Position numbers and translations under genes: made by a program
Notes under the pieces: generated by a model
Database searches by the model: none
Seen by the model: the letters and a program-made list of their open reading frames with translations, nothing else
Told to the model about the DNA's origin: nothing
Shown: piece after piece, positions 5,251-61,698 of the stretch
Layout: every line of letters begins with the position of its first letter
Position numbering within the stretch: position 1 is the first letter of the stretch
Source: Bacteroidaceae bacterium
GTDB taxonomy: Bacteria > Bacteroidota > Bacteroidia > Bacteroidales > Bacteroidaceae
Length of the DNA stretch: 64,000 nt
Assembly: GCA_017621515.1 (NCBI GenBank)
Contig: JAGASY010000008.1
Location: forward strand, 8,759-72,758
Reading direction: 5' to 3'

Positions 5251-5280
5251 AAACATTCTAAAAATTCGACTTTTTCAATT

Positions 5281-6024
5281 TGACAAAATGATATTTTCGC
5301 TCAAAATGAAAATTTAACACTTCGAGCGATTTTATGCTGAGAAAGAAGAGATAAAAATTTTAGCTTAAAGATATTTAATTGATAATCAGCTAAATACAAA
5401 AATCTTCGAAACGCTCAAAAAAACGCACCGGATGCAATTTTTCGAGAATTTTGAATATTCTGATAATCTATTGATTATTAATATTTTACAATCAAAAACA
5501 TCATTTTCGCTCTCAAATGCCCTCAAAAATTCACTCGCTTTTAAGATTCTGTTCAGACTCATTGCCAAAGCAGTAAATTATACACTTCTTAATACTCCAA
5601 GCGGAGCAAACTGTCTTTTTCTCCGCTTCCCACTGTTTTTTTTCTTTGCAGCGCGCTGTTTTTATTTTTTCAGCGCACAGTGCAGAAAACTGTAGCGCAC
5701 AGGAAATAAAATTACAGTGCGCTGTGGAGAAAAAAACTGTGCGCTGAAAATTTGAAAACTTAGTACTTTTTTTCCGAGAACTCTTCGCTTAGGATAAATA
5801 AATGTAAAAGAACTGTTCCAAAACGAAACACAATTTCACATTTTGCAGAGCCTTTAGAAAATGCGTGTAGAATCCCCGTTCTTCGAGAAAAGTTCGTCGC
5901 GCTTCATTTTGACGCGTGCCAGAGGACTTGGAATTTTAACATTTGGCAAAATCAAAAGGATGGTGTTTTGGGCGTAAATTTGGCAAAATGAAATAAAATG
6001 GCTAATTATGTTGTTATTTTGCCA
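5281..6024 (+). repeat. Copy A of the 742-744 bp ORF-less modular element (MITE-like or noncoding RNA/operator module)
   Basis: Collinear with 12905-13646 and, as reverse complement, with 23333-24074, 37085-37828 and 60174-60917. The left end is TGACAAAATGATA and the right end is a degenerate inverted copy. The CAGCGCRC array lies at 5649-5746. No reading frame is conserved among the copies. Confidence 0.9.
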
Positions 6025-6615
6025 GAAAAATAACTTTGTTAAAATGTGCATATCAATTTTTTTTGTTATGGACACTTTTTGGGCATGTTTTTGACTGTCT
6101 ATGTGATTATGCTCCACAGGCACCTTTTGTTGTCTTTTGTGGAAGTCTTTGACTGATTTCTTCTTAAAACCCAAAAGGATTCTGTAAATACATCTAATTG
6201 AAAATAGTATGATGAATATATGAATATACCCGCTTGAACCATTCACTTTCCCAACTGACAAAATGTTAATTAAACCTACAGAAATTTGTGTTCCCTTTTA
6301 CTTTCTTTTTGTAAACAAAAACCGTTAAATTATTACATAAAACACATAAACATACACTTTTTTGCATCCTAAAGCTATGAAATTAATAAATATTCACCTA
6401 AAAATTTTGTTTGAAACATTTGTTTGCGTATTTTTGTCCTCAATTTACAAAAAGATAGTAAAACGACGCAAAATAAAATCATAAAGAAAGCGACAAATTC
6501 ATTTTTACGGCGACACTACATTTAATATCCCACCAAGTGAATCTTAATGCTTTTCTTGAGAATATGATGCTATTGCAATTTTTTAATTAATTATTTTAAA
6601 TAAAAGTTTGAGAGA

Positions 6616-12606: not shown

Positions 12607-12700
12607 GGATGTGTTAAGTGGGTGTATTTGCAGGCTGCTCTTTTAGTGTGTCTTAGTGGGTGTATTTACAGACTACTCATTTAGTGAATACACCTACTTT
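12607..12700. repeat. Cluster of REP-like sites (GTGGGTGTATTTGCAGGCTGCTC, GTGGGTGTATTTACAGACTACTC, GTGAATACACCTAC)
   Basis: Three to four tandem or inverted copies of the REP-like core are seen directly. Confidence 0.7.
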
Positions 12701-12823: not shown

Positions 12824-12904
12824 AGTGGTTCATGGACATTCAATTCGGATTGGTAAGTATTTACAACATGGAGTAAACACATACAAAAACACTATTCCTC
12901 AAAA

Positions 12905-13646
12905 TGACAAAATGATATTTTCGCCCAGAATGAAAATTTAACACTTCGAGCAATTTTTTGCCGATGGCAAAAAAGAGAAAAATTTGAAGCGAAAATAAAT
13001 TATTGATAATCAATTAAATATAAAATTCTCAAAAACGCTCAAGAAATTGTGCTGGACGCAATTTTTTTGTAAATTCTGAATATTTGACAATGTGCTGACT
13101 ATCAATGTCTTACAGGTGAAAGCTCCATTTTCACCCTCAAATACCTCCAAAAACTCATTCGCTTTTCTGCTTCTGTTCAGCCACACTTTCAAAACAGGAA
13201 TTATACACTTCTTAACATTTCAACCGAATTTCGCTGTCTTTTTTCCCCTTTCCCAGTGCATTTTCAAAAAATCTATACTGAAAATTTCTCCAATCTACTA
13301 AGCGCGCGAATTTGTAGCGCACTGTCGTTGTCGGAACAGTGCGCTGAAAAAGTGGTGACAGTGCGCTGGAAATATCAAAACTTAGTAGATTGGAGAAAAC
13401 AATTCTTCGCCAAAGATAAATGAATGTAAAAGAACTGTCAAAAAAGAAACACTATTTCACAATTCGCAGAGCCTTTAGAAAATGCGCGTAGAATCCCCGT
13501 TCTCCGAGAAAAGTTCGGTGCGCCTCATTTTGACGCGTGCCAGCGGGCTTGGAATTTTAACATTTGACAAAATCAAAAAGAAAGTATTCCAATGTAAAAT
13601 GATTGAATTATAATCAAAATATATGAAATATGCTATCATTTTGTCA
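12905..13646 (+). repeat. Copy B of the 742-744 bp ORF-less modular element
   Basis: TGACAAAATGATA at the left end and TATCATTTTGTCA at the right end match 13/13 as inverted repeats. The CAGCGCRC array lies at 13301-13368 and is bracketed by a perfect 17-bp inverted repeat (13286-13302 / 13381-13397). The conserved right-hand block is present. Confidence 0.9.
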
Positions 13647-14159
13647 AAACAGGGCATCCCTCAAAAAAACGATGTCAAAAATTTTTTTATGGAGCTTCAT
13701 TTTTAGGGCGAACAAGACTCTTGAAACTTATGTTTGTTTTGAAATCATCCCGGCAAAACAGGACAAAAAATATCAGCAGGTGCAATATATATTTTTCTCA
13801 TGCAACGGTTCATTCCCTTTTATTTTCTTTTCAGGGATTAAGCCTGAAGAGGAAACAGCTCGAAGACTGTGGGAAGAAGGGATGAGACCGGCGGCGATTG
13901 CCGCATAACTGCCAATTCAAAATTTAACGGGCTGTTACTTTTATGATATGGCATGTTTGATAACCTTTTTCGTTCTTTTTGTAGCAGAAAACCGTAAATT
14001 TGTTCTCCTTGTAATGCTAATTTATGCAAAATACTATCAAGCAGTCTGTTTTGTAATCCTTTTTTCATATTTTTGTAGCGAAAATAATCAAATCTCTGAG
14101 AAAATGCTTTCTAAAAAGGGAAGAACTAATGAAATTATAATTTTACAAACAAAAGATTT

Positions 14160-22181: not shown

Positions 22182-22263
22182 GCCCAGATGGCGGAATCGG
22201 TAGACGCGCTGGTCTCAAACACCAGTGGAGCAATCCATCCCGGTTCGATCCCGGGTCTGGGTA
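22182..22263 (+). tRNA. tRNA-Leu (anticodon CAA), class II with long variable arm
   Basis: Cloverleaf folded by hand: acceptor GCCCAGA/TCTGGGT, anticodon stem CTGGT/ACCAG with loop CTCAAAC, variable arm TGGAGCAATCCATC, T-arm CCCGG-TTCGATC-CCGGG. CCA is not encoded. Confidence 0.9.
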
Positions 22264-22386
22264 CAGGTAAAAGCTAAGTATTGATTTTTTCAATTACTTG
22301 GCTTTTCTTTTTTATCAGACTCTTCGGGTCAGCAGATTTGGGTATAAAAAAGGTCAGCTAATAAATATTATCGCTGATTTTGCTAT

Positions 22387-23094: not shown

Positions 23095-23332
23095 ATCGCA
23101 ATACTTCTCAAAAATCGTCTTTTTTGAGAAGTGTTTTTCTTCTAATTCAAATTCAATTGGAAGAATAGAGATTTTTAGTTTCATTCTGACTTCTCCGCAT
23201 ATATTTCAAAATTTAATAGGCTATTGTCGTAGATAAGTTTAACTAATTATTCTGGTTTATACATTGTTGTAACCTATATTTAAAGCTCCATAAAAAATTT
23301 TTTGACATCGTTTTTTGAGGTATATTTTGTTT

Positions 23333-24074
23333 TGATAAAATGTCGATGTATTTTGAATAATACAATCATATTGACAAATAATATTTGTTCTCGCTGTCTT
23401 TTTGATTTTGCCAAATGTTAAAATCCTGAGCCCTCTGGAATGCTTCAAAATGAGGCGCGCCGAACTTTTCTCAAAGAATGGGGATTTTGTGAGCGTTTTC
23501 AAAAGCTTTCACGAATTGTGAAATAGTGTTTCGTTTTAGAACGGTTCTTTCACATTTGTTTATTCTTGACGAAGAGTTTTCTGGAGAAGAGTACTAAGTT
23601 TTTAAATTTTCAGCGTACTGTTTTTTTCTTCGCAGCGCACTGCAATTTTCTTCACAGCGCACTGGAAATTCTCTCACTGTGCGCTGAAAATTTGATGATA
23701 GTGCGCTGAAATTAAAAAAATACTGGGATGTGGAGAATAAGACAGCGGAGTTCATCCTAAATGTTAAGAAGTGTATAATTTGTTGCATGGGAAGAGGGGC
23801 AGAACAGAAACTGAAAAATGGGTATTGTTCGGGCGGTATTTGGGAACGGAAACGGTGGACTTATTTGTAATATATTAATAATCAGAGATTTATCAGAATA
23901 CTCAAATTTATCGAAAAATTGCGTCCGGCGCATTTTTTGAACGATTTCTATAAAATTATATCTTTTTGATTATCAGAGTCTTATCTTTGAGTCAAAATTT
24001 TCGTCTTCTCGCCATCGACAAAATATCGCTCCAAGTGTTAAATTTTCATTTTGAGTGAAAATATCATTTTGTCA
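23333..24074 (-). repeat. Copy C of the 742-744 bp ORF-less modular element (most diverged copy)
   Basis: Its reverse complement is collinear with copy A. The ends are TGATAAAATG (degenerate) and TATCATTTTGTCA. The CAGCGCRC array lies at 23611-23707. Confidence 0.85.
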
Positions 24075-24116
24075 AATTGAAAAATGCCGTTTTAGCATGA
24101 TTTTCTACTGTTTTAT

Positions 24117-25110: not shown

Positions 25111-25344
25111 ATAAGCATAACGCTTCTTCTTTTTCTAATATGTCTTGGATGTAGGTTTTCCTACTCCGGTGGCAAAGATATAAAAATAGTCTGATATAAT
25201 GCAATATATGAGTAGATTATAATTTTGTTTTTCTTCTTTCCTTTTTATGCTTCTGGGTTACGCTGAATCAATATCTTTGGTATGTTGTTATATTATGAGT
25301 GTCAAAACAAAGATAATGTATATAAGATTAGAATACTTAGAAGA

Positions 25345-25387
25345 AGTGGTGTGGTAGCGACGGAGGAGTCTGTCGGATACATCCATA
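25345..25387. repeat. Partial REP-like unit (GTGGTGTGGTAGCGACGGAGGAGTCTGTCGGATACATCC)
   Basis: Nearly identical to part of the 59894-60085 cluster. Confidence 0.65.
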
Positions 25388-34679: not shown

Positions 34680-35117
34680 TTATTTTGTTCCGGAATGTCC
34701 GAATCCTCCTTCTCCGCGTTCCGTCTCGTCCAGAGTCTCAACCACACTCCATTCCACAGTCTCGTGCTTTGCCACAACCATCTGTGCAATTCTTTCTCCG
34801 TCGTTGATGGTGAAAGGTTCGGCAGACAGATTGACCAGTATGACGCATACTTCGCCCCGGTAGTCGGCATCTATGGTTCCCGGACTATTGAGCACGGTAA
34901 TCCCTTTCTTGATGGCAAGACCACTGCGGGGACGAACCTGTGCTTCATATCCGGCAGGCAGAGAAAGATACAGTCCTGTCGGAACAAGTGTGCGCTGCAT
35001 CGGGGCAAGCACGATAGGCTCATCAATATTGGCTCTTAAGTCCATGCCGGCTGACAGTTCTGTCGAATAGGCTGGCAACTCGTGGTGTGACTTGTTGATT
35101 ATTTTTACCTTCATCAT
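34680..35117 (-). CDS. dut: dUTP diphosphatase
   Basis: 145 aa. [22 protein letters not shown], and the C-terminal [10 protein letters not shown] motif. Confidence 0.95.
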
Positions 35118-35363
35118 TTTCTTTCTTTTGTGTGTTGGAGAAATATGTATATATAGAAATTTTACGCTTCCGTCATAGCCGGAATCGTATTTGTCATATT
35201 TTCAATACAAAACTAACAAAAAAATAGCAAGTAGGGGAGAATGCCGTATATAAAAAATGAAAAAAAACTTCTTTTACCTCTTATTTGAGATAATGATAAC
35301 TTGCTTAATATATCATATAATAAATAAAATACCTATTTTTGCAGTATTAAAATATATGTTGGT

Positions 35364-35684
35364 ATGGCAAAAAACACAATGGGCACTAAGTTGCCTCGAA
35401 GACTGGAACAAAAAATGATCTTGATGGGCGAGCAAATTAAGCTTGCCCGTCTGCGCCGAAATCTCTCGATAGCTCAGGTTGCAGAACGAGCAACCTGTTC
35501 ACCGCTGACAATTGCACGCATTGAAAAAGGTTCTTCTACCGTTTCTATCGGTATATATGCCCGTGTCCTTTATGCTTTGCAGCTTGATGATGACCTTTTG
35601 CTGATTGCAAAAGAGGACACACTCGGTCGTACCTTGCAAGATCTTAGCCTAAAACACCGTCAACGCGCATCAAAAAAGGAATAA
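35364..35684 (+). CDS. XRE-family HTH antitoxin (HipB-like)
   Basis: 106 aa. IKLARLRRNLSIAQVAERATCSPLTIARIEKG. Its stop lies 3 nt before the hipA start. Confidence 0.8.
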   Translation: MAKNTMGTKLPRRLEQKMILMGEQIKLARLRRNLSIAQVAERATCSPLTIARIEKGSSTVSIGIYARVLYALQLDDDLLLIAKEDTLGRTLQDLSLKHRQRASKKE

Positions 35685-35687
35685 ACC

Positions 35688-36941
35688 ATGCAAAGATTAT
35701 ATGTATATGCCGATTTCGATTGCATCGATACACCTCAATTAGTTGGGATATTGTCGTGCGATTCAGTACGTGGCAATGAGACTTATAGCTTCTCGTATGA
35801 TAAAGATTGGCTTGCCATGTACGGAAATATTTTTTTGAGTAACGATTTGCAGAATTATCCCGGCATCCAATATACAAGACCGGAGCGAGATATATTTGCT
35901 TGTTTCTCGGATGCATTACCCGATAGATGGGGACGCACATTACTGAATCGACGTGAACAGATTGCAGCTGTGGAGGAAAAGAGGAAGGTGCGCCGTTTGA
36001 CTTCATTCGACTATCTGATGGGTATTGATGATGCGTCAAGGATGGGGGGATTTAGGTTTGCTGAAACTCCCGGAAGTAAATTCCTCAATTGTGATGACAG
36101 ATTGCGAGTTCCACCATTGACAAGCGTCAGAGAACTGATGCATGCTGCACATGAGGTTGAAGTCAGCGAAGAAAAGCATTTATTGCCCTCAAAGAAATGG
36201 TTAGCACAGTTGTTGCATCCCGGAACATCACTCGGTGGAGCCAGACCTAAAGCGTCTGTCATTGACGATGCCGGAAGGTTAACTATTGCCAAATTTCCTT
36301 CTCGCAAAGATGATTATGATGTCGCTCAATGGGAGCATTTCTGTCATATTATGGGACGCAAAGCTGGGATTAATGTAGCCGAAACACGCACAGTACCGGG
36401 AGAAAATTACCATATCTTACTTTCGAGACGATTTGACAGAACAGACAATGGTAAAAGAATACATTTCGCTTCATCACTGACATTGTTAGGGCTGACAGAT
36501 GGCGACAATGCATCAACAGGCTATGGCTATACCGATATAGTTGATTTCATTATTCAGCATGGATGCGATGTAGAACAAAATCTTGAAGAGTTGTATCGCC
36601 GTGTGGCATTCTACATCATTATTGGCAATTCCGATGACCATTTCCGTAATCATGGATTTCTATTGACACGTAAAGGTTGGAAACTTTCTCCAGCCTACGA
36701 CATCAACCCAACACTTGCTGAAAATCAAAGCCTATTGATTAATCGTACAACCGATGAGTCTAACTTGAATATTCTTTTAGAATCTTCCGGAGACTACATG
36801 CTTTCAGCCACGAAAGCTCAAACTATTATTATGGAAGTAAAAACTGCTATGGAATCGTGGCATCACGAAGCTCGAAAGCTCGGATTGCCACAACGAGACA
36901 TTGATATGTTTGCGCCTCGCTTTGAAAAATGTATGTCATGA
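35688..36941 (+). CDS. hipA: Type II toxin-antitoxin system HipA family kinase toxin
   Basis: 417 aa. HipA N-terminal coupling region, SLGGARPKA, and the catalytic GNSDDHFRNHGF. Confidence 0.9.
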   Translation: MQRLYVYADFDCIDTPQLVGILSCDSVRGNETYSFSYDKDWLAMYGNIFLSNDLQNYPGIQYTRPERDIFACFSDALPDRWGRTLLNRREQIAAVEEKRKVRRLTSFDYLMGIDDASRMGGFRFAETPGSKFLNCDDRLRVPPLTSVRELMHAAHEVEVSEEKHLLPSKKWLAQLLHPGTSLGGARPKASVIDDAGRLTIAKFPSRKDDYDVAQWEHFCHIMGRKAGINVAETRTVPGENYHILLSRRFDRTDNGKRIHFASSLTLLGLTDGDNASTGYGYTDIVDFIIQHGCDVEQNLEELYRRVAFYIIIGNSDDHFRNHGFLLTRKGWKLSPAYDINPTLAENQSLLINRTTDESNLNILLESSGDYMLSATKAQTIIMEVKTAMESWHHEARKLGLPQRDIDMFAPRFEKCMS

Positions 36942-36948
36942 TATTTCT

Positions 36949-37012
36949 TTAGTGGTTGTATTCACAGACTCCTCATGTTTGTTTAGAAGTCTGTGAATAC
37001 AACCACTTAAAC
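36949..37012. repeat. REP-like palindrome AGTGGTTGTATTCACAGACTCCTC ... AGTCTGTGAATACAACCACT
   Basis: Near-perfect inverted arms immediately after the hipA stop. Confidence 0.8.
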
Positions 37013-37084
37013 AAACATTACATACATCTATAAAAGGCTTCATAACAAAATTTTTTATATATAATTTTTAACAAAAATATTTTC

Positions 37085-37828
37085 TGACAAAATGATAGTG
37101 TATCTTTGCTTGTGAGGCTCTTGATTGTAGTAATTTAGCCAAAATACTTTCTTTTTGATTTTGTCAAATGTTAAAATCCCAAGCCCTCTGGAACGCTCCA
37201 AAATGAAGCGTGCTGAACTTTTCTCGAAGAATGAGGATTCTGTGCGTATTTTCTGAAGGCTCTACAAAATGTGAAATAGTGTTTCATTTTGGAGCAGCTC
37301 TTTTACATTTATTTATTTCCGGCGAAGAGTCTTTTTGAAAAAAGTACTAAGTTCTCAAATTTTCAGCGCGCAGTTTTTTTCTCCACAGCGCACTGCAATT
37401 TTATTTCCTGTGCGCTACAATTTTCTGCACTGTGCGCTGAAAAAATAAAAACAGCGCGCTGAAAAGATGAAAACAGTGGGCAGCGGAGAAAAAGACATTT
37501 TGCTTCGGTTGAAATGTTAAGAAGTGTATAGTTCATTGCTTCGAAAGAGTGTCTGAACAGAACTTTAAAAGTGAATGAATTTGAAATAGCATTTTGGAGT
37601 AAAAATGTTAGGTTTGCTTGTAATATATTAATAATCAGTAGATTATCAGAATACTCAAAATGCTCGAAAAATTGCGTCCGGTATGTTTTTTTGAGTATTT
37701 TGTGTAAAATTATATCTTGCTGATTGTCAATACTTTATCCTTGCTGTGAAATTTTTGTCTTTTCCTCCTCGACAAAAAATCACTCGAAGTGTTAAATTTT
37801 CATTTTGAGCGAAAATATCATTTTGTCA
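37085..37828 (-). repeat. Copy D of the 742-744 bp ORF-less modular element
   Basis: Terminal TGACAAAATGATA / TATCATTTTGTCA match 13/13. The CAGCGCRC array at 37364-37461 differs from copy A at only about 8 positions by eye. Confidence 0.9.
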
Positions 37829-37869
37829 AAATGAAAATGGTGCGAATTATAGAAAATTTAGCATTTTAT

Positions 37870-37888
37870 AGGTCTGTCAGATACATCC
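37870..37888. repeat. REP-like half-site AGGTCTGTCAGATACATCC
   Basis: Lies about 41 bp outside the left end of copy D. It resembles 25366-25385. Confidence 0.5.
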
Positions 37889-37973
37889 GAAAAAGATAAA
37901 AATCTGAAACGGTTTCTATGCTATGGATAAAATATGTAACTTTGGCTTGCTTAATATAGACATGGTTATGGTA

Positions 37974-39293
37974 ATGGACTGGGAAAGACTTATATCGAAT
38001 AAACGGCTTGGACAGGAAGAACTGCACTACAGGCGAAAGGACGACCGCACGGAGTTTAAAAGAGACTATGACAGACTGATTTTCTCTGCTCCGTTCAGAC
38101 GATTGCAGAATAAGACACAGGTGTTTCCTCTTCCCGGCAGTGTGTTTGTGCATAATAGATTGACACACAGTCTTGAGGTGGCAAGTGTGGGACGCTCACT
38201 CGGCGACGATGTGGCGCGTAGGCTGCTGAGTCTGCATCCGGAGCTGGCGGAGACACATGTAAGTGAAATCGGCGACATTGTGAGTGCTGCTTGTCTTGCT
38301 CATGATATGGGTAATCCTCCTTTCGGACATTCGGGCGAGAAAGCCATTGCCACTTTCTTCTCGGAAGGTGACGGACTGAAATACAAAGAGATGGTGACGG
38401 AGGGGCAGTGGCAGGACTTGACACATTACGAGGGAAATGCAAATGCTTTCCGTCTGCTGACCCATCAGTTTGCCGGACGAAGAAAGGGCGGATTTGTCAT
38501 GACCTATTCCACTCTCGCCTCCATCGTGAAATATCCCTTCCGTTCTTCTTTTGCCGGCGACAAACAGAAGTTCGGCTTTTTTCTGAGTGAGGAGGACACA
38601 TATCGGAAGATTGCCGACGAGTTGGGGATTGTGCAGCTTGCGGAAGGACGTTATGCACGTCATCCGCTTGTCTATCTGGTGGAGGCGGCAGATGACATTT
38701 GTTATGAAATAATGGACATTGAGGATGCCCATAAGCTGAAACTGCTTTCGACAGAGGAGACGAAAGAAGCCATGCTTGCTTTCTTCGACGAGGAGCGGAG
38801 AGAGCGCATCTGCAAGGTGTTTACCGAGGTGGAGGACATCAATGAGCAGATTGTGTATTTGCGCTCATGCGTAATAGGTAAGCTGGAGAGTGAGTGTGTG
38901 GAGGCATTTGTGAACAATGAACAGCAGATTCTGAAAGGCGAGTTCAAGGGACCGCTCATCAAAAGCATTTCTCCCCAGGTGTATGATGCATACGGCAAAT
39001 GTATGTCGTTGTCGGTACAGAAGATTTACCAGAGCAAGGATGTAGTGGATATAGAGCTTGCCGGATACAAGATTATCAGTACGTTGATCGATTTGTTTGC
39101 TACAGCGGCTATGTATCCCGAAAAAGCTTATTCCAAGCTTCTGCTCCGTCGTGTGTCTTCTCAATATGATGTGCATTCGGAGGATGTATATACTCGCATC
39201 ATGGCTGTGCTTGATTTTGTGTCGGGAATGACGGATGTCTTTGCGCTTGACCTTATCCGAAAGATTAATGGCGAGAGCATCCCTATGTTGTAA
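37974..39293 (+). CDS. dgt: Deoxyguanosinetriphosphate triphosphohydrolase-like (HD domain dNTPase)
   Basis: Conserved start MDWERLISNKR; DYDRLIFSAPFRRLQNKTQV; HNRLTHSLEV; HDMGNPPFGHSGE. The ORF extends back to 37923. Confidence 0.9.
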   Translation: MDWERLISNKRLGQEELHYRRKDDRTEFKRDYDRLIFSAPFRRLQNKTQVFPLPGSVFVHNRLTHSLEVASVGRSLGDDVARRLLSLHPELAETHVSEIGDIVSAACLAHDMGNPPFGHSGEKAIATFFSEGDGLKYKEMVTEGQWQDLTHYEGNANAFRLLTHQFAGRRKGGFVMTYSTLASIVKYPFRSSFAGDKQKFGFFLSEEDTYRKIADELGIVQLAEGRYARHPLVYLVEAADDICYEIMDIEDAHKLKLLSTEETKEAMLAFFDEERRERICKVFTEVEDINEQIVYLRSCVIGKLESECVEAFVNNEQQILKGEFKGPLIKSISPQVYDAYGKCMSLSVQKIYQSKDVVDIELAGYKIISTLIDLFATAAMYPEKAYSKLLLRRVSSQYDVHSEDVYTRIMAVLDFVSGMTDVFALDLIRKINGESIPML

Positions 39294-39317: not shown

Positions 39318-39570
39318 GCAGATGCCTCCCTTGTGCTTTAGTGGGTGCATTCATAGAGTCCTCATATTACTTTCTTAAGCGGATGTACTCGACAGACTCC
39401 CACTTAAAAGTAATGCAAGGAGTCTGTCAAAGACATCTGCTTAAAAAAGTAATATGAGGAGTCTGTGAATACACTCCTTAAGCTAAAGAAAAAATGCACC
39501 CACTAAAAGCACAAGGGAGGTCTGCCTAATCCCCCAACGTAACTATAACAAACAATTCTAAAACAACTTC
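39318..39570. repeat. Nested REP-like palindrome cluster (BIME-like) between convergent genes
   Basis: Outer arms are GCAGATGCCTCCCTTGTGCTTTAGTGGGTGCAT / ATGCACCCACTAAAAGCACAAGGGAGGTCTGC. Two further nested arm pairs contain GAGTCTGT/ACAGACTC cores. A trailing ACGTAACTATAACAAA module is shared with 60047-60070. Confidence 0.85.
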
Positions 39571-59894: not shown

Positions 59895-60085
59895 TTTAGA
59901 AATTGTTTTAAAATGATTCGTTATAGTTATGTGGATGTCTTCGACAGACTCCTCCGTCGCTACGCGCCACCTCCCCTGTTAGGGAAGGTGGTGTGGTAGC
60001 GACGGAGGGGGCTGTTGAAGACATTTGCTTAATCTGTTGAAGACATCCACGTAACTATAACGAATCATTTTTAACCAGTTTCTAA
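59894..60085. repeat. Nested REP-like palindrome cluster of about 190 bp directly after the GH127 stop
   Basis: Outer arms are GTTTAGAAATTGTTTTAAAATGATTCGTTATAGTTATGTGGATGTCTTC / GAAGACATCCACGTAACTATAACGAATCATTTTTAACCAGTTTCTAA. Inner arms are CCTCCGTCGCTAC..CACCTCCC / GGAAGGTGGTGTGGTAGCGACGGAGG. Confidence 0.85.
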
Positions 60086-60173
60086 TATATCTATAAAGCA
60101 TATTATATGTTGCCATAATTTAGTTCCCCATAAAAAAATTTTTGATATCGTTTTTTTGAGGGGTATTCGAATT

Positions 60174-60917
60174 TGACAAAATGACAACATATTTAATTGT
60201 TCTGGTTTCTAAATTTCTGATTTTATACTATTAATCTGTCTTTTTGATTTTGTCAAATGTTAAAAAATCAAGCCCTCTGGAACGCTCCAAAATGAGGCAT
60301 GTCGAACTTTTCTTGAAGAATGGGGATTCTACGCGCATTTTCTGAAGGCTCTGCAAAATGTGAAATAGTGTTTCGTCTTGGAGCAGTTCTTTTACATTTA
60401 TTTATTTCCGGCAAAGAGTATTTGGAAAAAAAGTACTAAGTTCTCAAAATTCCAGCGCACTGTCGTCAAATTTTCAGCGCACTGCAATTTTATTTGCAGC
60501 GCAGTAGAAATTTTCTCACTGTGCGCTGAAAAAATAAAAACAGCGTGCTGAAAATAAAATTGCAGTGGGAAGTGGAGAAAAAGACAGTTTGTTTCGGTTG
60601 AAATGTTAAGAAGTGTATAATTCGTGGCATGGGAGGAGTGTTTGAACAAAAACTGAAAAGTGAGTGGATTTGAAGCGGTGTTTGGGTATGGAAACGGTGA
60701 GATTAGTTGTAAGATATTAATAATCAATATATTACTAAAATACGCGAAAATCTCGAAAAATTGCCTCCGGCGCGCTTTTTTGAGTTTTTTGAGAATTTTT
60801 ATATCCGATTGATTATCAATTAATTATCTTTGAGCCGAAATTTTTGTCTCTTTATCCCCGGCAAAAAATCATCCGAAGTGTTAAATTTTTATTTTGGGCG
60901 AAAATATCATTTTGTCA
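60174..60917 (-). repeat. Copy E of the 742-744 bp ORF-less modular element
   Basis: Ends are TGACAAAATGACA / TATCATTTTGTCA. The CAGCGCRC array at 60453-60550 has five to six cores. The conserved right-hand block is present. A REP-like half-site at 60950-60969 lies 33 bp outside the left end. Confidence 0.9.
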
Positions 60918-61080
60918 TCTTTAAAAGTGAATTTTTAGCGTGTTTTTTTGTGGATGTGTTGAATATACCACTAAAATTCATGTGGAATTGATTTTCATTG
61001 ACTTTTATCGCAGAAAATCAACTATATTAGAAAATGACGGTACAACTATTTGTTAGGGAAAAGAAAGCCCTAATTTCAAA

Positions 61081-61698
61081 GTGGCCGAATTTGACCACTT
61101 TAGAATGAGTGCAGGTTTGCCGTCTTTTGTGTTGAGTGCTTCGGAGTGGATAGAGCGCACGAATGCAATCGGGATAATAGTGAAGAAAGGTCGTTATGGA
61201 GGCACCTATGCTCATAAGGATATAGCCTTTGAGTTTGGTTCGGCAATAAGTGTGCCGTTCAAACTTTATCTTATCGAGGAATTTCAGCGGTTAAAGACGG
61301 AGGAACAGCGGTTATTGGGTTGGTCAGCGAAACGTGAGCTGTCGAAAATCAACTACCGCATACATACCGATGCCATAAAGCAGAACCTTATCCCTGCAGA
61401 GGTTACTCCGGCACAGGCGAGCGTCATCTATGCCAATGAAGCCGATGTGTTGAATGTGGCGATGTTCGGTGTAACGGCGAAACAATGGCGCGAATCCAAT
61501 CCCGACCTCAAAGGGAACATACGCGACTATGCTACAATCAACGAACTTATCTGCTTGTCAAATATGGAGAACCTCAATGCGGTTTTCATCGAACAAGGAA
61601 TGGCGCAAAGCGAGCGGCTTGTGAAGCTGAATCAGATAGCCATTCATCAGATGAGCGTGCTGGAAAGCGGCGACAACGATAGAAAACTATTGAAATAA
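61081..61698 (+). CDS. C-terminal two-thirds of a KilA-N family protein; the N-terminal KilA-N domain is missing or decayed (possible pseudogene)
   Basis: GRYGGTYAHKDIAFEFGSAISVPFKLYLIEEFQRLK and KINYRIHTDAIKQNLIP match the conserved core of Bacteroidales KilA-N proteins. The ORF starts at GTG, and an in-frame TAG lies at 61054-61056 within upstream sequence that still looks homologous (..SPNFK). Confidence 0.6.
   Translation: MAEFDHFRMSAGLPSFVLSASEWIERTNAIGIIVKKGRYGGTYAHKDIAFEFGSAISVPFKLYLIEEFQRLKTEEQRLLGWSAKRELSKINYRIHTDAIKQNLIPAEVTPAQASVIYANEADVLNVAMFGVTAKQWRESNPDLKGNIRDYATINELICLSNMENLNAVFIEQGMAQSERLVKLNQIAIHQMSVLESGDNDRKLLK

Follow-up and report, generated by a model that had tools for sequence, protein, structure and literature searches.

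The DNA analysed here, a window of 64,000 nucleotides of contig JAGASY010000008.1 from an uncultured gut bacterium of the Bacteroidaceae, carries five copies of a dispersed element that resembles MITEs (miniature inverted-repeat transposable elements) and has an internal phased repeat array. The element is non-coding and about 0.8 kb long, and consists of ~330 nt, a central array of 98 nt and ~370 nt. We define "cores" as the GC-rich 10-nt sequences that recur in the array and "spacers" as the sequences between them. Judging from sequence comparisons, we put at roughly 0.4 the probability that the array is a set of phased sites for one sequence-specific DNA-binding protein, which would bind them on duplex DNA within a trans-mobilised non-coding element or as part of a host function. 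The evidence that carries this reading is the regular phasing of the cores, their conservation relative to the spacers, the lack of compensatory change between opposed cores, and the existence of relatives in which the core differs while the period is kept.

Copies and content of the element

The five copies in the window, two of them on the minus strand, have a mean column identity of 75% in a five-copy alignment. Their consensus has a 15-nt inverted repeat (positions 53-67 vs 786-800, complementary at 15/15 positions) that is terminal on the right; on the left, ~45 further conserved nt lie outside it in every copy. To find other copies, a 35-nt pattern from the right end was searched against 185,579 species-representative genomes, which gave three matches, all in one Prevotellaceae metagenome-assembled genome (MAG). 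In metagenomes the pattern matched 98 stretches, all from one gut co-assembly (Desmarest's spiny pocket mouse), and it had no match in viral contigs. A BLAST search with copy E found 60 full-length and 49 truncated copies, the truncated ones mostly at contig ends, and the copy number in this one rodent-gut metagenome is about 100. All five window copies have near-identical counterparts in the pocket-mouse metagenome, so that a strain of the window's species, or of one very close to it, must be present there.

The figures given below for variability, cores, indels and promoter boxes are based on 54 non-redundant copies. These paralogues are on average 73% identical (5-95% range 68-78.5%), with no pair above 88%, and their flanks are unique DNA. 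All orientations of the neighbouring genes are represented, divergent pairs being somewhat in excess. The element has no match in PLSDB plasmids or phages, and no Rfam family is hit at gathering score over the whole window. No coding version was found among 55 complete right ends, all of which share the same non-coding body, and neither the window nor ~1 Mb of loci selected around the element itself yielded an autonomous insertion sequence (IS) that shares its ends. Small proteins were considered and rejected: a recurrent 17-aa open reading frame (ORF; consensus 173-226) and one of 35-48 aa on the other strand are intact in 65-78% of copies, their variation does not fall on third codon positions, and their C-termini differ.

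A second, unrelated repeat family is also present in the window. It consists of palindromes of 55-95 nt built from GAGGAGTCTGTCGAATACATCCAC, at 36952-37007, 59932-60024, 12610-12686, 39406-39481 and 25337-25382, and GAGGAGTCTGTCGAATACATCCAC resembles IS5-type terminal repeats such as that of ISPg4, GAGACTGTTGCA. Its loose 9-nt core, TGTYGAAKA, has 142 matches in the ~1 Mb of loci, many of them by chance within genes. A half-unit of this family, GAGGAGTCTGTCGAATAC, abuts the right end of the element in 17/44 copies vs a background of 1.7%; a larger unit bounded on both sides by GAGGAGTCTGTCGAATAC was rejected as a general structure, as only 2/44 copies have it on both sides.

Short-read contigs from several independent samples (L105-L110, L002, L003 and many of L004-L101) end within the element, for instance at a point ~115 nt upstream of the dGTPase gene, which makes the element a systematic source of broken assemblies in this lineage.

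Insertion status

The element is an insertion that is missing from orthologous sites in relatives. In the spacer between HPPK and an AraC-family gene it is present in the MAG contig L002 and absent from three contigs (L118-L120) of a relative whose neighbouring 1018-aa protein is 92% identical and in which HPPK runs straight to the AraC-family gene. When L118 and L120 are compared with L002, homology ends after ..CCATGCTTGA and the element starts with AAATGACAAAATGATATTTTC, which places the right end 3 nt past TTGTCA, at the end of the 15-nt inverted repeat. At this site (L002, 4490-5005) the insertion also replaces the HPPK stop codon, so that the frame runs 12 codons into the element (171 aa vs 159 aa in relatives). 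The spacer between the dut and dGTPase genes likewise measures 72-312 nt in relatives whose dGTPase is 80-84% identical, and ~0.98-1 kb with the element in the window and in L111.

We found no target-site duplication: the longest word shared by left and right flanks averages 5.8 within copies vs 6.0 ± 0.16 between copies, in a test that is blind to duplications of 2-4 nt since the left end is not defined to the base. Because of this, and because of the ~45 conserved nt outside the left inverted repeat, the element resembles a MITE without being a textbook one.

Anatomy of the array

The motif CAGCGCRC has 21 matches in the window where 2.73 are expected, a number reached in 0/100 shuffles. The arrays had been delimited in an initial annotation of the window, and 19 of the 21 matches lie inside them; the two outside compare with a chance expectation of 2.7 for the whole window, and the motif is not enriched outside the elements. 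The five 10-mers of copy D read as that annotation gave them, and their starts, which it had placed about 21-22 bp apart, follow a period of exactly 22 nt, with 12-nt A/T-rich spacers. Tandem Repeats Finder reports a period of 22-23 at 4/5 arrays.

Each repeat, TTTTCAGCGCAC, is asymmetric, with a T-tract that precedes the core CAGCGCAC. In copy D cores 1 and 2 are forward (TTTTCAGCGCRC) and cores 3, 4 and 5 are reverse; across copies units 1-2 are forward, units 4-5 reverse and unit 3 stands either way, which makes the array an imperfect palindrome. The number of units is five in 53/54 copies. Phasing, whose absence from an alignment of more copies the initial annotation had named as a refutation, persists, with two indel events in the 98-nt arrays of 54 copies, one of them the loss of exactly one 22-nt unit. 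Indels are scarce through most of the interior of the element, and tight spacing is therefore not special to the array. The units hold a position-specific identity from copy to copy, which indicates inherited sites rather than a homogenised minisatellite.

Two types of array can be distinguished by their right half. In 21/54 copies (~40%), copy B included, the right half is CTTAGTAG(A/T)TTGGAGAAATTTTCAGYGTAGAT, and we refer to these copies as type II and to the others as type I. In copy B, CTTAGTAGATTGGAGAA..CAGTATAGAT stands in place of cores 4-5 and forms the perfect 17-nt inverted repeat that had been noted around this array, which is exact (13286-13302 vs 13381-13397). Type II arrays as a group are closed by a different stem, of 17-29 bp. 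The left flank TTCTCCAATCTACTAAG goes with CTTAGTAGATTGGAGAA, and AAACTACTAAG with CTTAGTAGTTT, a switch from T:A to A:T. The spacers fall into a few module types, and the variety of their combinations suggests that copies have recombined with one another.

The copy that lost a unit (L101, 7547-7713) lacks spacer 2-3 together with core 3, and where its last two cores would stand it has the palindrome CTCTATAGAG and the closely similar CTCTATAGTG. The palindrome CTCTATAGAG is also found at the last core of L061 and L006.

Table 1. Positions of the element copies, their arrays and the inverted repeats of copy D in the window
Feature	Position	Strand	Remarks
Copy A	5278..6071	-	
Copy B	12898..13693	-	type II
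Copy C	23287..24080	+	
Copy D	37039..37831	+	consensus ~8-803; right end set by analogy with the empty-site junction
Copy E	60127..60920	+	
Array of copy A	5649-5746		five cores, type I like copy D
Array of copy B	13301-13368		three cores, type II
Array of copy C	23611-23708		five cores; core 3 forward
Array of copy D	37364-37461	+	five 10-nt cores at 37364, 37386, 37408, 37430, 37452
Array of copy E	60453-60550		five cores
Left copy of 15-nt inverted repeat, copy D	37083..37097	+	consensus TTTGACAAAATGATA, here TCTGACAAAATGATA; subterminal
Internal third copy of the 15-nt repeat motif, copy D	37157..37170	+	opposite orientation, GATTTTGTCAAATG
Right terminal inverted repeat, copy D	37816..37830	+	TATCATTTTGTCAAA; element end ~3 nt past TTGTCA

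Conservation and selection

Contrary to what the initial annotation had supposed, other parts of the element are better conserved than the array. With variability expressed as 1 minus the majority frequency, the whole array scores 0.242 and the whole element 0.195, and much lower values are found at consensus 121-180 (0.077), 484-505 (0.09) and 758-800 (0.044). The earlier impression came from the comparison of copies A and D, which share one array subtype and are indeed nearly alike centrally (roughly 10 differences over ~150 central columns). Within the array the comparison between cores and spacers, on which that annotation had staked its view of the motif, gives 0.143 for the cores and 0.345 for the spacers. 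Core 2, invariant in 50/54 copies, ranks among the best 2% of 10-nt windows and core 1 among the best 10%; cores 3-5 are average because ~40% of copies carry the different right half.

Orthologous copies in the window and the metagenome strain were also compared. Their differences number 7 in the 332 columns that are conserved among paralogues, 33 in 241 intermediate columns and 69 in 228 variable columns, and the array has five differences in four orthologous pairs, or ~1%. The flanking genes of the orthologues differ by 10.7-12% at third codon positions. The scarcity of change in paralogue-conserved columns relative to third codon positions indicates purifying selection at individual loci, and not descent alone. 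Consensus 301-666 likewise shows ~1% differences in two orthologue pairs. The differences are patchy, however: 33 between copy B and L071 lie inside consensus 44-112, and 10/12 between copy D and L102 lie inside consensus 501-694. This suggests conversion tracts and makes fine-scale rate estimates unsafe.

Variability and the number of indels both peak in a segment of ~60 nt (consensus 68-126; copy D 37098-37156) between inverted TTTGACAAAAT motifs, where orthologues differ by 17-48%, compared with 11-12% at nearby third codon positions. Conversion or local hypermutation may account for this. An invertible segment between the TTTGACAAAAT motifs was rejected, as the orthologues align forward and not as reverse complements.

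Relatives with other cores

The core sequence changes between species. The partial copy from the MAG JAJPZU01 shares ~75-80% identity with the window copies in its right arm, and its array consists of CACCGCAGTG, then CACCGCGGTG four times, then a partial unit, all exactly 22 nt apart (five to six cores of the CACCGCGG type). A much more diverged but collinear relative of the element is found in the MAGs GCA_023666375.1 and GCA_023665775.1. It is multi-copy too, with two copies that are 78% identical and a third, partial copy, and its four units, of the form CAAGGYRNNN (CAAGGTGCTG, CAAGGCACAC, CAAGGCGCAC and CAAGGTGAAC), are exactly 22 nt apart and all direct. These CAAGG-type arrays (L111, L124) have no hairpin potential (z -1.2, -0.3 and 0.0). 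On these sequences, what the family keeps appears to be the period of 22 nt and the succession of A/T tract and GC-rich core, and not palindromy. Relatives with direct units only and a 22-nt period are what binding sites with a co-evolving reader predict, and are hard to square with an obligatory hairpin.

In JAJPZU01 one copy of the element (L001, 5004-7526) adjoins the gene of a large N6-adenine DNA methylase, of a sort found on conjugative elements of Bacteroides. The best relatives of this methylase are 73% identical and none is close, and an attempt to reach a full copy of the CACCGCGG type by way of the methylase gave none.

Pairing potential and transcription signals

The array of copy D can fold into a nested hairpin of -51.7 kcal/mol (z -3.4) on the plus strand and -60.5 kcal/mol (z -5.2) on the minus strand; for L002 the scores are z -6.9 and -10.2. 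The sub-threshold Rfam matches of copy D are all long plant microRNA-precursor hairpins. Compensatory change between opposed cores had been proposed in the initial annotation as the test that would tell an RNA from a protein-binding site, and we found none: pairing of core 1 with core 5 is no better within copies than between them (z -0.9) and the 2:4 pair never varies, in a test whose power is low because the cores vary so little and whose invariant pairs are uninformative. RNAalifold assigns the array a covariation term of -0.14 kcal/mol, with a double change in 1/18 pairs, and spacers 2-3 and 3-4 are complementary at only 4/12 positions.

Over the whole element there are 103 covarying column pairs of Watson-Crick type, which is not clearly more than the 82 and 36 under two control pairing rules, and the strongest covariation signals across the element are module swaps. 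The global RNA fold of the whole element was rejected as a structure, with only -30 and -10 kcal/mol for the two strands and no stacked covarying helices. A compensated stem at the left end (GCTCC..A7..T7..GGAGG) was rejected as well, the pairing run being 4.24 within copies vs 4.11 ± 0.16 between them. The strongest Watson-Crick-type covariation of the element involves consensus 162 and 167 (copy D ~37192 and ~37197), five positions apart, where 26 copies have A..T and 26 have C..G (GGAACGCTTC vs GGCACGCGTC); this could be a tiny hairpin, a dyad site or a mark of two lineages.

The Bacteroidetes promoter box TAnnTTTG occurs at no position in more than 12/54 copies, and a sigma-70 scan is not informative for this phylum. 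A conserved A-tract, short GC hairpin and T7 run (AAAAAATTGCGTCCGGCGCGTTTTTTT) at consensus 634-664 (copy C 23920-23942; copy D ~37664-37694) could be a weak bidirectional terminator; a terminator scan flagged it in copy C only.

Interpretation of the array

The favoured explanation is that the array would be the internal cis-acting site of a trans-mobilised, MITE-like, non-coding insertion element of ~0.8 kb. The site would comprise five 22-bp units, each a T-tract and then a GC-rich core (TTTTCAGCGCAC in the window's species), and several molecules of one DNA-binding protein would recognise these units on duplex DNA; with two helical turns per unit, all sites would face the same side of the DNA. 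Such a protein might be a factor for the mobilisation or recombination of the element, encoded elsewhere, or else a host regulator that the element has recruited, and its specificity would co-evolve with the cores between species. Both the binding of such a protein and any effect of that binding are inferred. The interpretation in the initial annotation is partly borne out: its protein-site version is favoured, indirectly, by the compensation test and by the relatives with direct units, whereas its analogies with plasmid origins and partition sites do not fit ~100 chromosomal copies.

Several observations weigh against this explanation. Both in the window's species and in L002 the array forms a strong quasi-palindrome (z -3.4 to -10.2), and the stem of 17-29 bp that closes type II arrays is a different one. 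Complementarity between spacers 1-2 and 4-5 shows a weak excess inside copies over that from copy to copy (z 2.0), and in L008 and L072 these spacers are complementary at 12/12 positions, including a compensated C-to-T with G-to-A change. The low power of the compensation test also counts here, and of the other core types CACCGCGG is represented by one partial copy and CAAGG by two copies. We found no candidate binding protein, there is no transposase in the window, 0/55 complete right ends adjoin a coding version of the element, and a central position is unusual for transposase-binding sites.

A rival reading is that the array acts as a single-stranded hairpin or cruciform, in which core 1 would pair with core 5 and core 2 with core 4 in a stem-loop of ~110 nt; it could then be a stabiliser or processing site in read-through RNA, like repetitive extragenic palindromic (REP) sequences and bacterial interspersed mosaic elements (BIMEs), or serve a role as single-stranded DNA in mobilisation or replication. 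We consider this rather unlikely. It would account for a stability well beyond that of shuffled sequences in copy D and L002, for the hairpin character of the weak Rfam matches and for the fully complementary spacers of L008 and L072. Types I and II moreover reach a long hairpin by different sequences (TTCTCCAATCTACTAAG with CTTAGTAGATTGGAGAA; AAACTACTAAG with CTTAGTAGTTT), and the A.C mismatches of type I on the plus strand become G.U pairs on the minus strand, where 33.1/44 arm positions pair vs 29.3 with Watson-Crick pairs only. Yet the pairing of the cores is not copy-specific, spacers 2-3 and 3-4 are mostly not complementary and the covariation term is close to zero. Non-matching arms are combined in ~10/33 type I and 6/21 type II copies, the favoured strand differs between type I (minus) and type II (plus), and on both strands the stem has T-runs on its 5' side and A-runs on its 3' side, whereas a terminator would show the reverse. 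The CAAGG-type relatives have direct units that lack hairpin potential. Perfect long arms, finally, can arise in quasi-palindromes by template switching, without selection.

The array might instead be a minisatellite-like by-product inside a MITE, as in the BrickBuilt elements, in which case a 22-nt unit would have been duplicated both in tandem and in inverted form, the array would have no sequence-specific role, and its apparent conservation would be due to shared ancestry together with gene conversion. The layout of leader, 23-nt array and tail recurs in a published MITE of the Bacteroidales (PMC4596501), one copy of our element has lost exactly one unit, and the shuffling of arms and modules between copies and the patchy orthologue differences are as gene conversion would give. 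This view is nonetheless quite improbable given that the number of units is five in 53/54 copies, compared with 1 to 22.8 in BrickBuilt, that the cores are conserved while the spacers diverge, and that the units are position-specific and not homogenised. Paralogues that are only 73% identical keep core 2 invariant in 50/54 copies, orthologous arrays show ~1% change vs 11-12% at nearby third codon positions, and other species have a different core at an unchanged period. Least probable of all, and in our view very unlikely, is that the array forms the 5' part of a non-coding RNA gene of ~360 nt that starts near consensus 298 and ends at the A-tract, GC hairpin and T7 motif of consensus 634-664. 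A near -7 box (TATTTTCG, one mismatch to TAnnTTTG) does occur at consensus 283 with TTTG 22 nt upstream, and is exact in 8/54 copies; the terminator-like motif is flagged in copy C, and the two orthologue pairs with ~1% differences over consensus 301-666 are as such a gene would predict. The promoter match is however imperfect in 46/54 copies, with a spacing 1 nt beyond the usual 19-21, and the terminator stem has only five pairs and is not flagged in copy E. Consensus 432-670 is nearly without consensus structure (-13 kcal/mol, with 2/26 pairs compensatory), the differences between D and L102 are concentrated within the proposed gene (10/12 inside consensus 501-694), and there is no match to an Rfam family.

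A bolder form of the protein-site reading, which we think unlikely, is that the ~100 elements, rather than being passive MITEs, are genome-wide docking platforms, each maintained by selection, for a dedicated, fast-evolving protein that reads five sites phased by 22 bp, an iteron-like system in a chromosome. Its role would be, for example, chromosome structuring, silencing or a new kind of trans-mobilisation with an internal enhancer, and its core code would be re-written between close species.

Comparison with known systems

The closest published architecture, set beside the element by its published description, is that of BrickBuilt, the only described equivalent that our literature search found for Prevotellaceae or Bacteroidales. 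This MITE of Porphyromonas gingivalis has a leader of ~300 nt, an array of 23-nt units and a tail of ~300 nt (Klein et al. 2015, PMC4596501). Its units are direct and abut without spacers, a single copy having 1 to 22.8 of them; a genome holds 19 copies, and the terminal repeats are IS5-like, GAGACCTTTGCA (PMC4596501). Both elements occur in the order Bacteroidales and are non-coding, always intergenic, dispersed in many copies and up to ~1 kb long; they share short inverted repeats at or near the ends, the layout of a leader, an array of 22-23-nt units and a tail, the lack of a transposase remnant and a narrow host range. The element described here differs in having five units (four in one copy and in the CAAGG relatives), each a core with a variable spacer, in having both forward and reverse units, in its ~100 copies, and in its ends, which are TTTGACAAAATGATA and not GAGACCTTTGCA.

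Plasmid iterons (R6K, pPS10, RK2; 22 bp) are groups of four to seven repeats with a period of ~22 bp, on one face of the helix and in A/T-rich DNA, and the repeat sequence shifts together with the specificity of the binding protein between related replicons. The element resembles them in a period of exactly 22 nt in three species, in apparent specificity switching, and, in the CAAGG type, in having all units direct. Iterons adjoin a rep gene in a plasmid origin, occur once or twice per replicon and are mostly direct, whereas the element has ~100 chromosomal copies between housekeeping genes, no rep gene, no PLSDB similarity and, in the window's species, mixed orientation.

REP units are ~35 nt long, and the ~100-nt REPINs (REP doublets forming hairpins) are whole elements mobilised by RAYT transposases. 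The array shares with REP, BIME and REPIN sequences its GC-rich imperfect palindromes in alternating orientation with short spacers, its intergenic position, its many copies and its potential for long hairpins; in the present case, however, the palindromic array is only the centre of a ~0.8 kb element with conserved arms, and the hairpin is absent from the relatives L111 and L124. The Tn7 ends, the Mu ends with their internal enhancer, and the arm-type sites of tyrosine recombinases consist of ~20-bp sites in set orientation and spacing that serve the protein of one particular element and are needed in cis. The array likewise has several sites of ~20 bp in defined orientation and spacing. Those of transposases and recombinases lie at or near the ends, the Mu enhancer excepted, while the present array is central and a different motif, TTTGACAAAATGA, stands at the ends and at one internal site.

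Genomic setting

The window is gene-dense chromosomal DNA of Bacteroidota and encodes SusC/RagA, proteins sorted by the type IX secretion system (T9SS), dGTPase, dUTPase and arginine-biosynthesis genes. A part of 9.4 kb is identical to a ruminant-metagenome scaffold, and the closest MAG at NCBI, GCA_965318355.1, has 99.6-99.8% identity to the window over the aligned part (two blocks). Copy D lies between a HipA-family gene (35688-36941) and the dGTPase gene (37923-39293). The dut and dGTPase genes are divergent, and their spacer (window 35117-37923) contains a helix-turn-helix (HTH) gene, the HipA gene and the element in the window's species, and a Fic/DUF4172 toxin module together with the element in L111 (7564-10001; dGTPase 90% identical). 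This spacer, seen in the window and in L111, L113, L114, L116 and L117, is an insertion hot spot. A tRNA-Leu(CAA) gene lies at 22182-22264, 1 kb upstream of copy C, and an ORF with a KilA-N domain at 61081-61698, after copy E; we saw no tie between either of these and the element.

Implications

The element has practical effects, breaking short-read assemblies of these gut Bacteroidales and altering gene ends, as with the 12 codons added to the HPPK frame in one MAG. The 98-bp array, in which cores, spacing and orientation can be mutated, offers a direct experimental handle on the putative binding factor, and the three natural core variants provide a built-in test of specificity. If the reading as protein-binding sites holds, copies of a single non-coding element make up ~3% of the genome of this bacterium, an element whose inner blocks evolve more than 10 times slower than neighbouring synonymous sites, and each copy would thus appear to do something.

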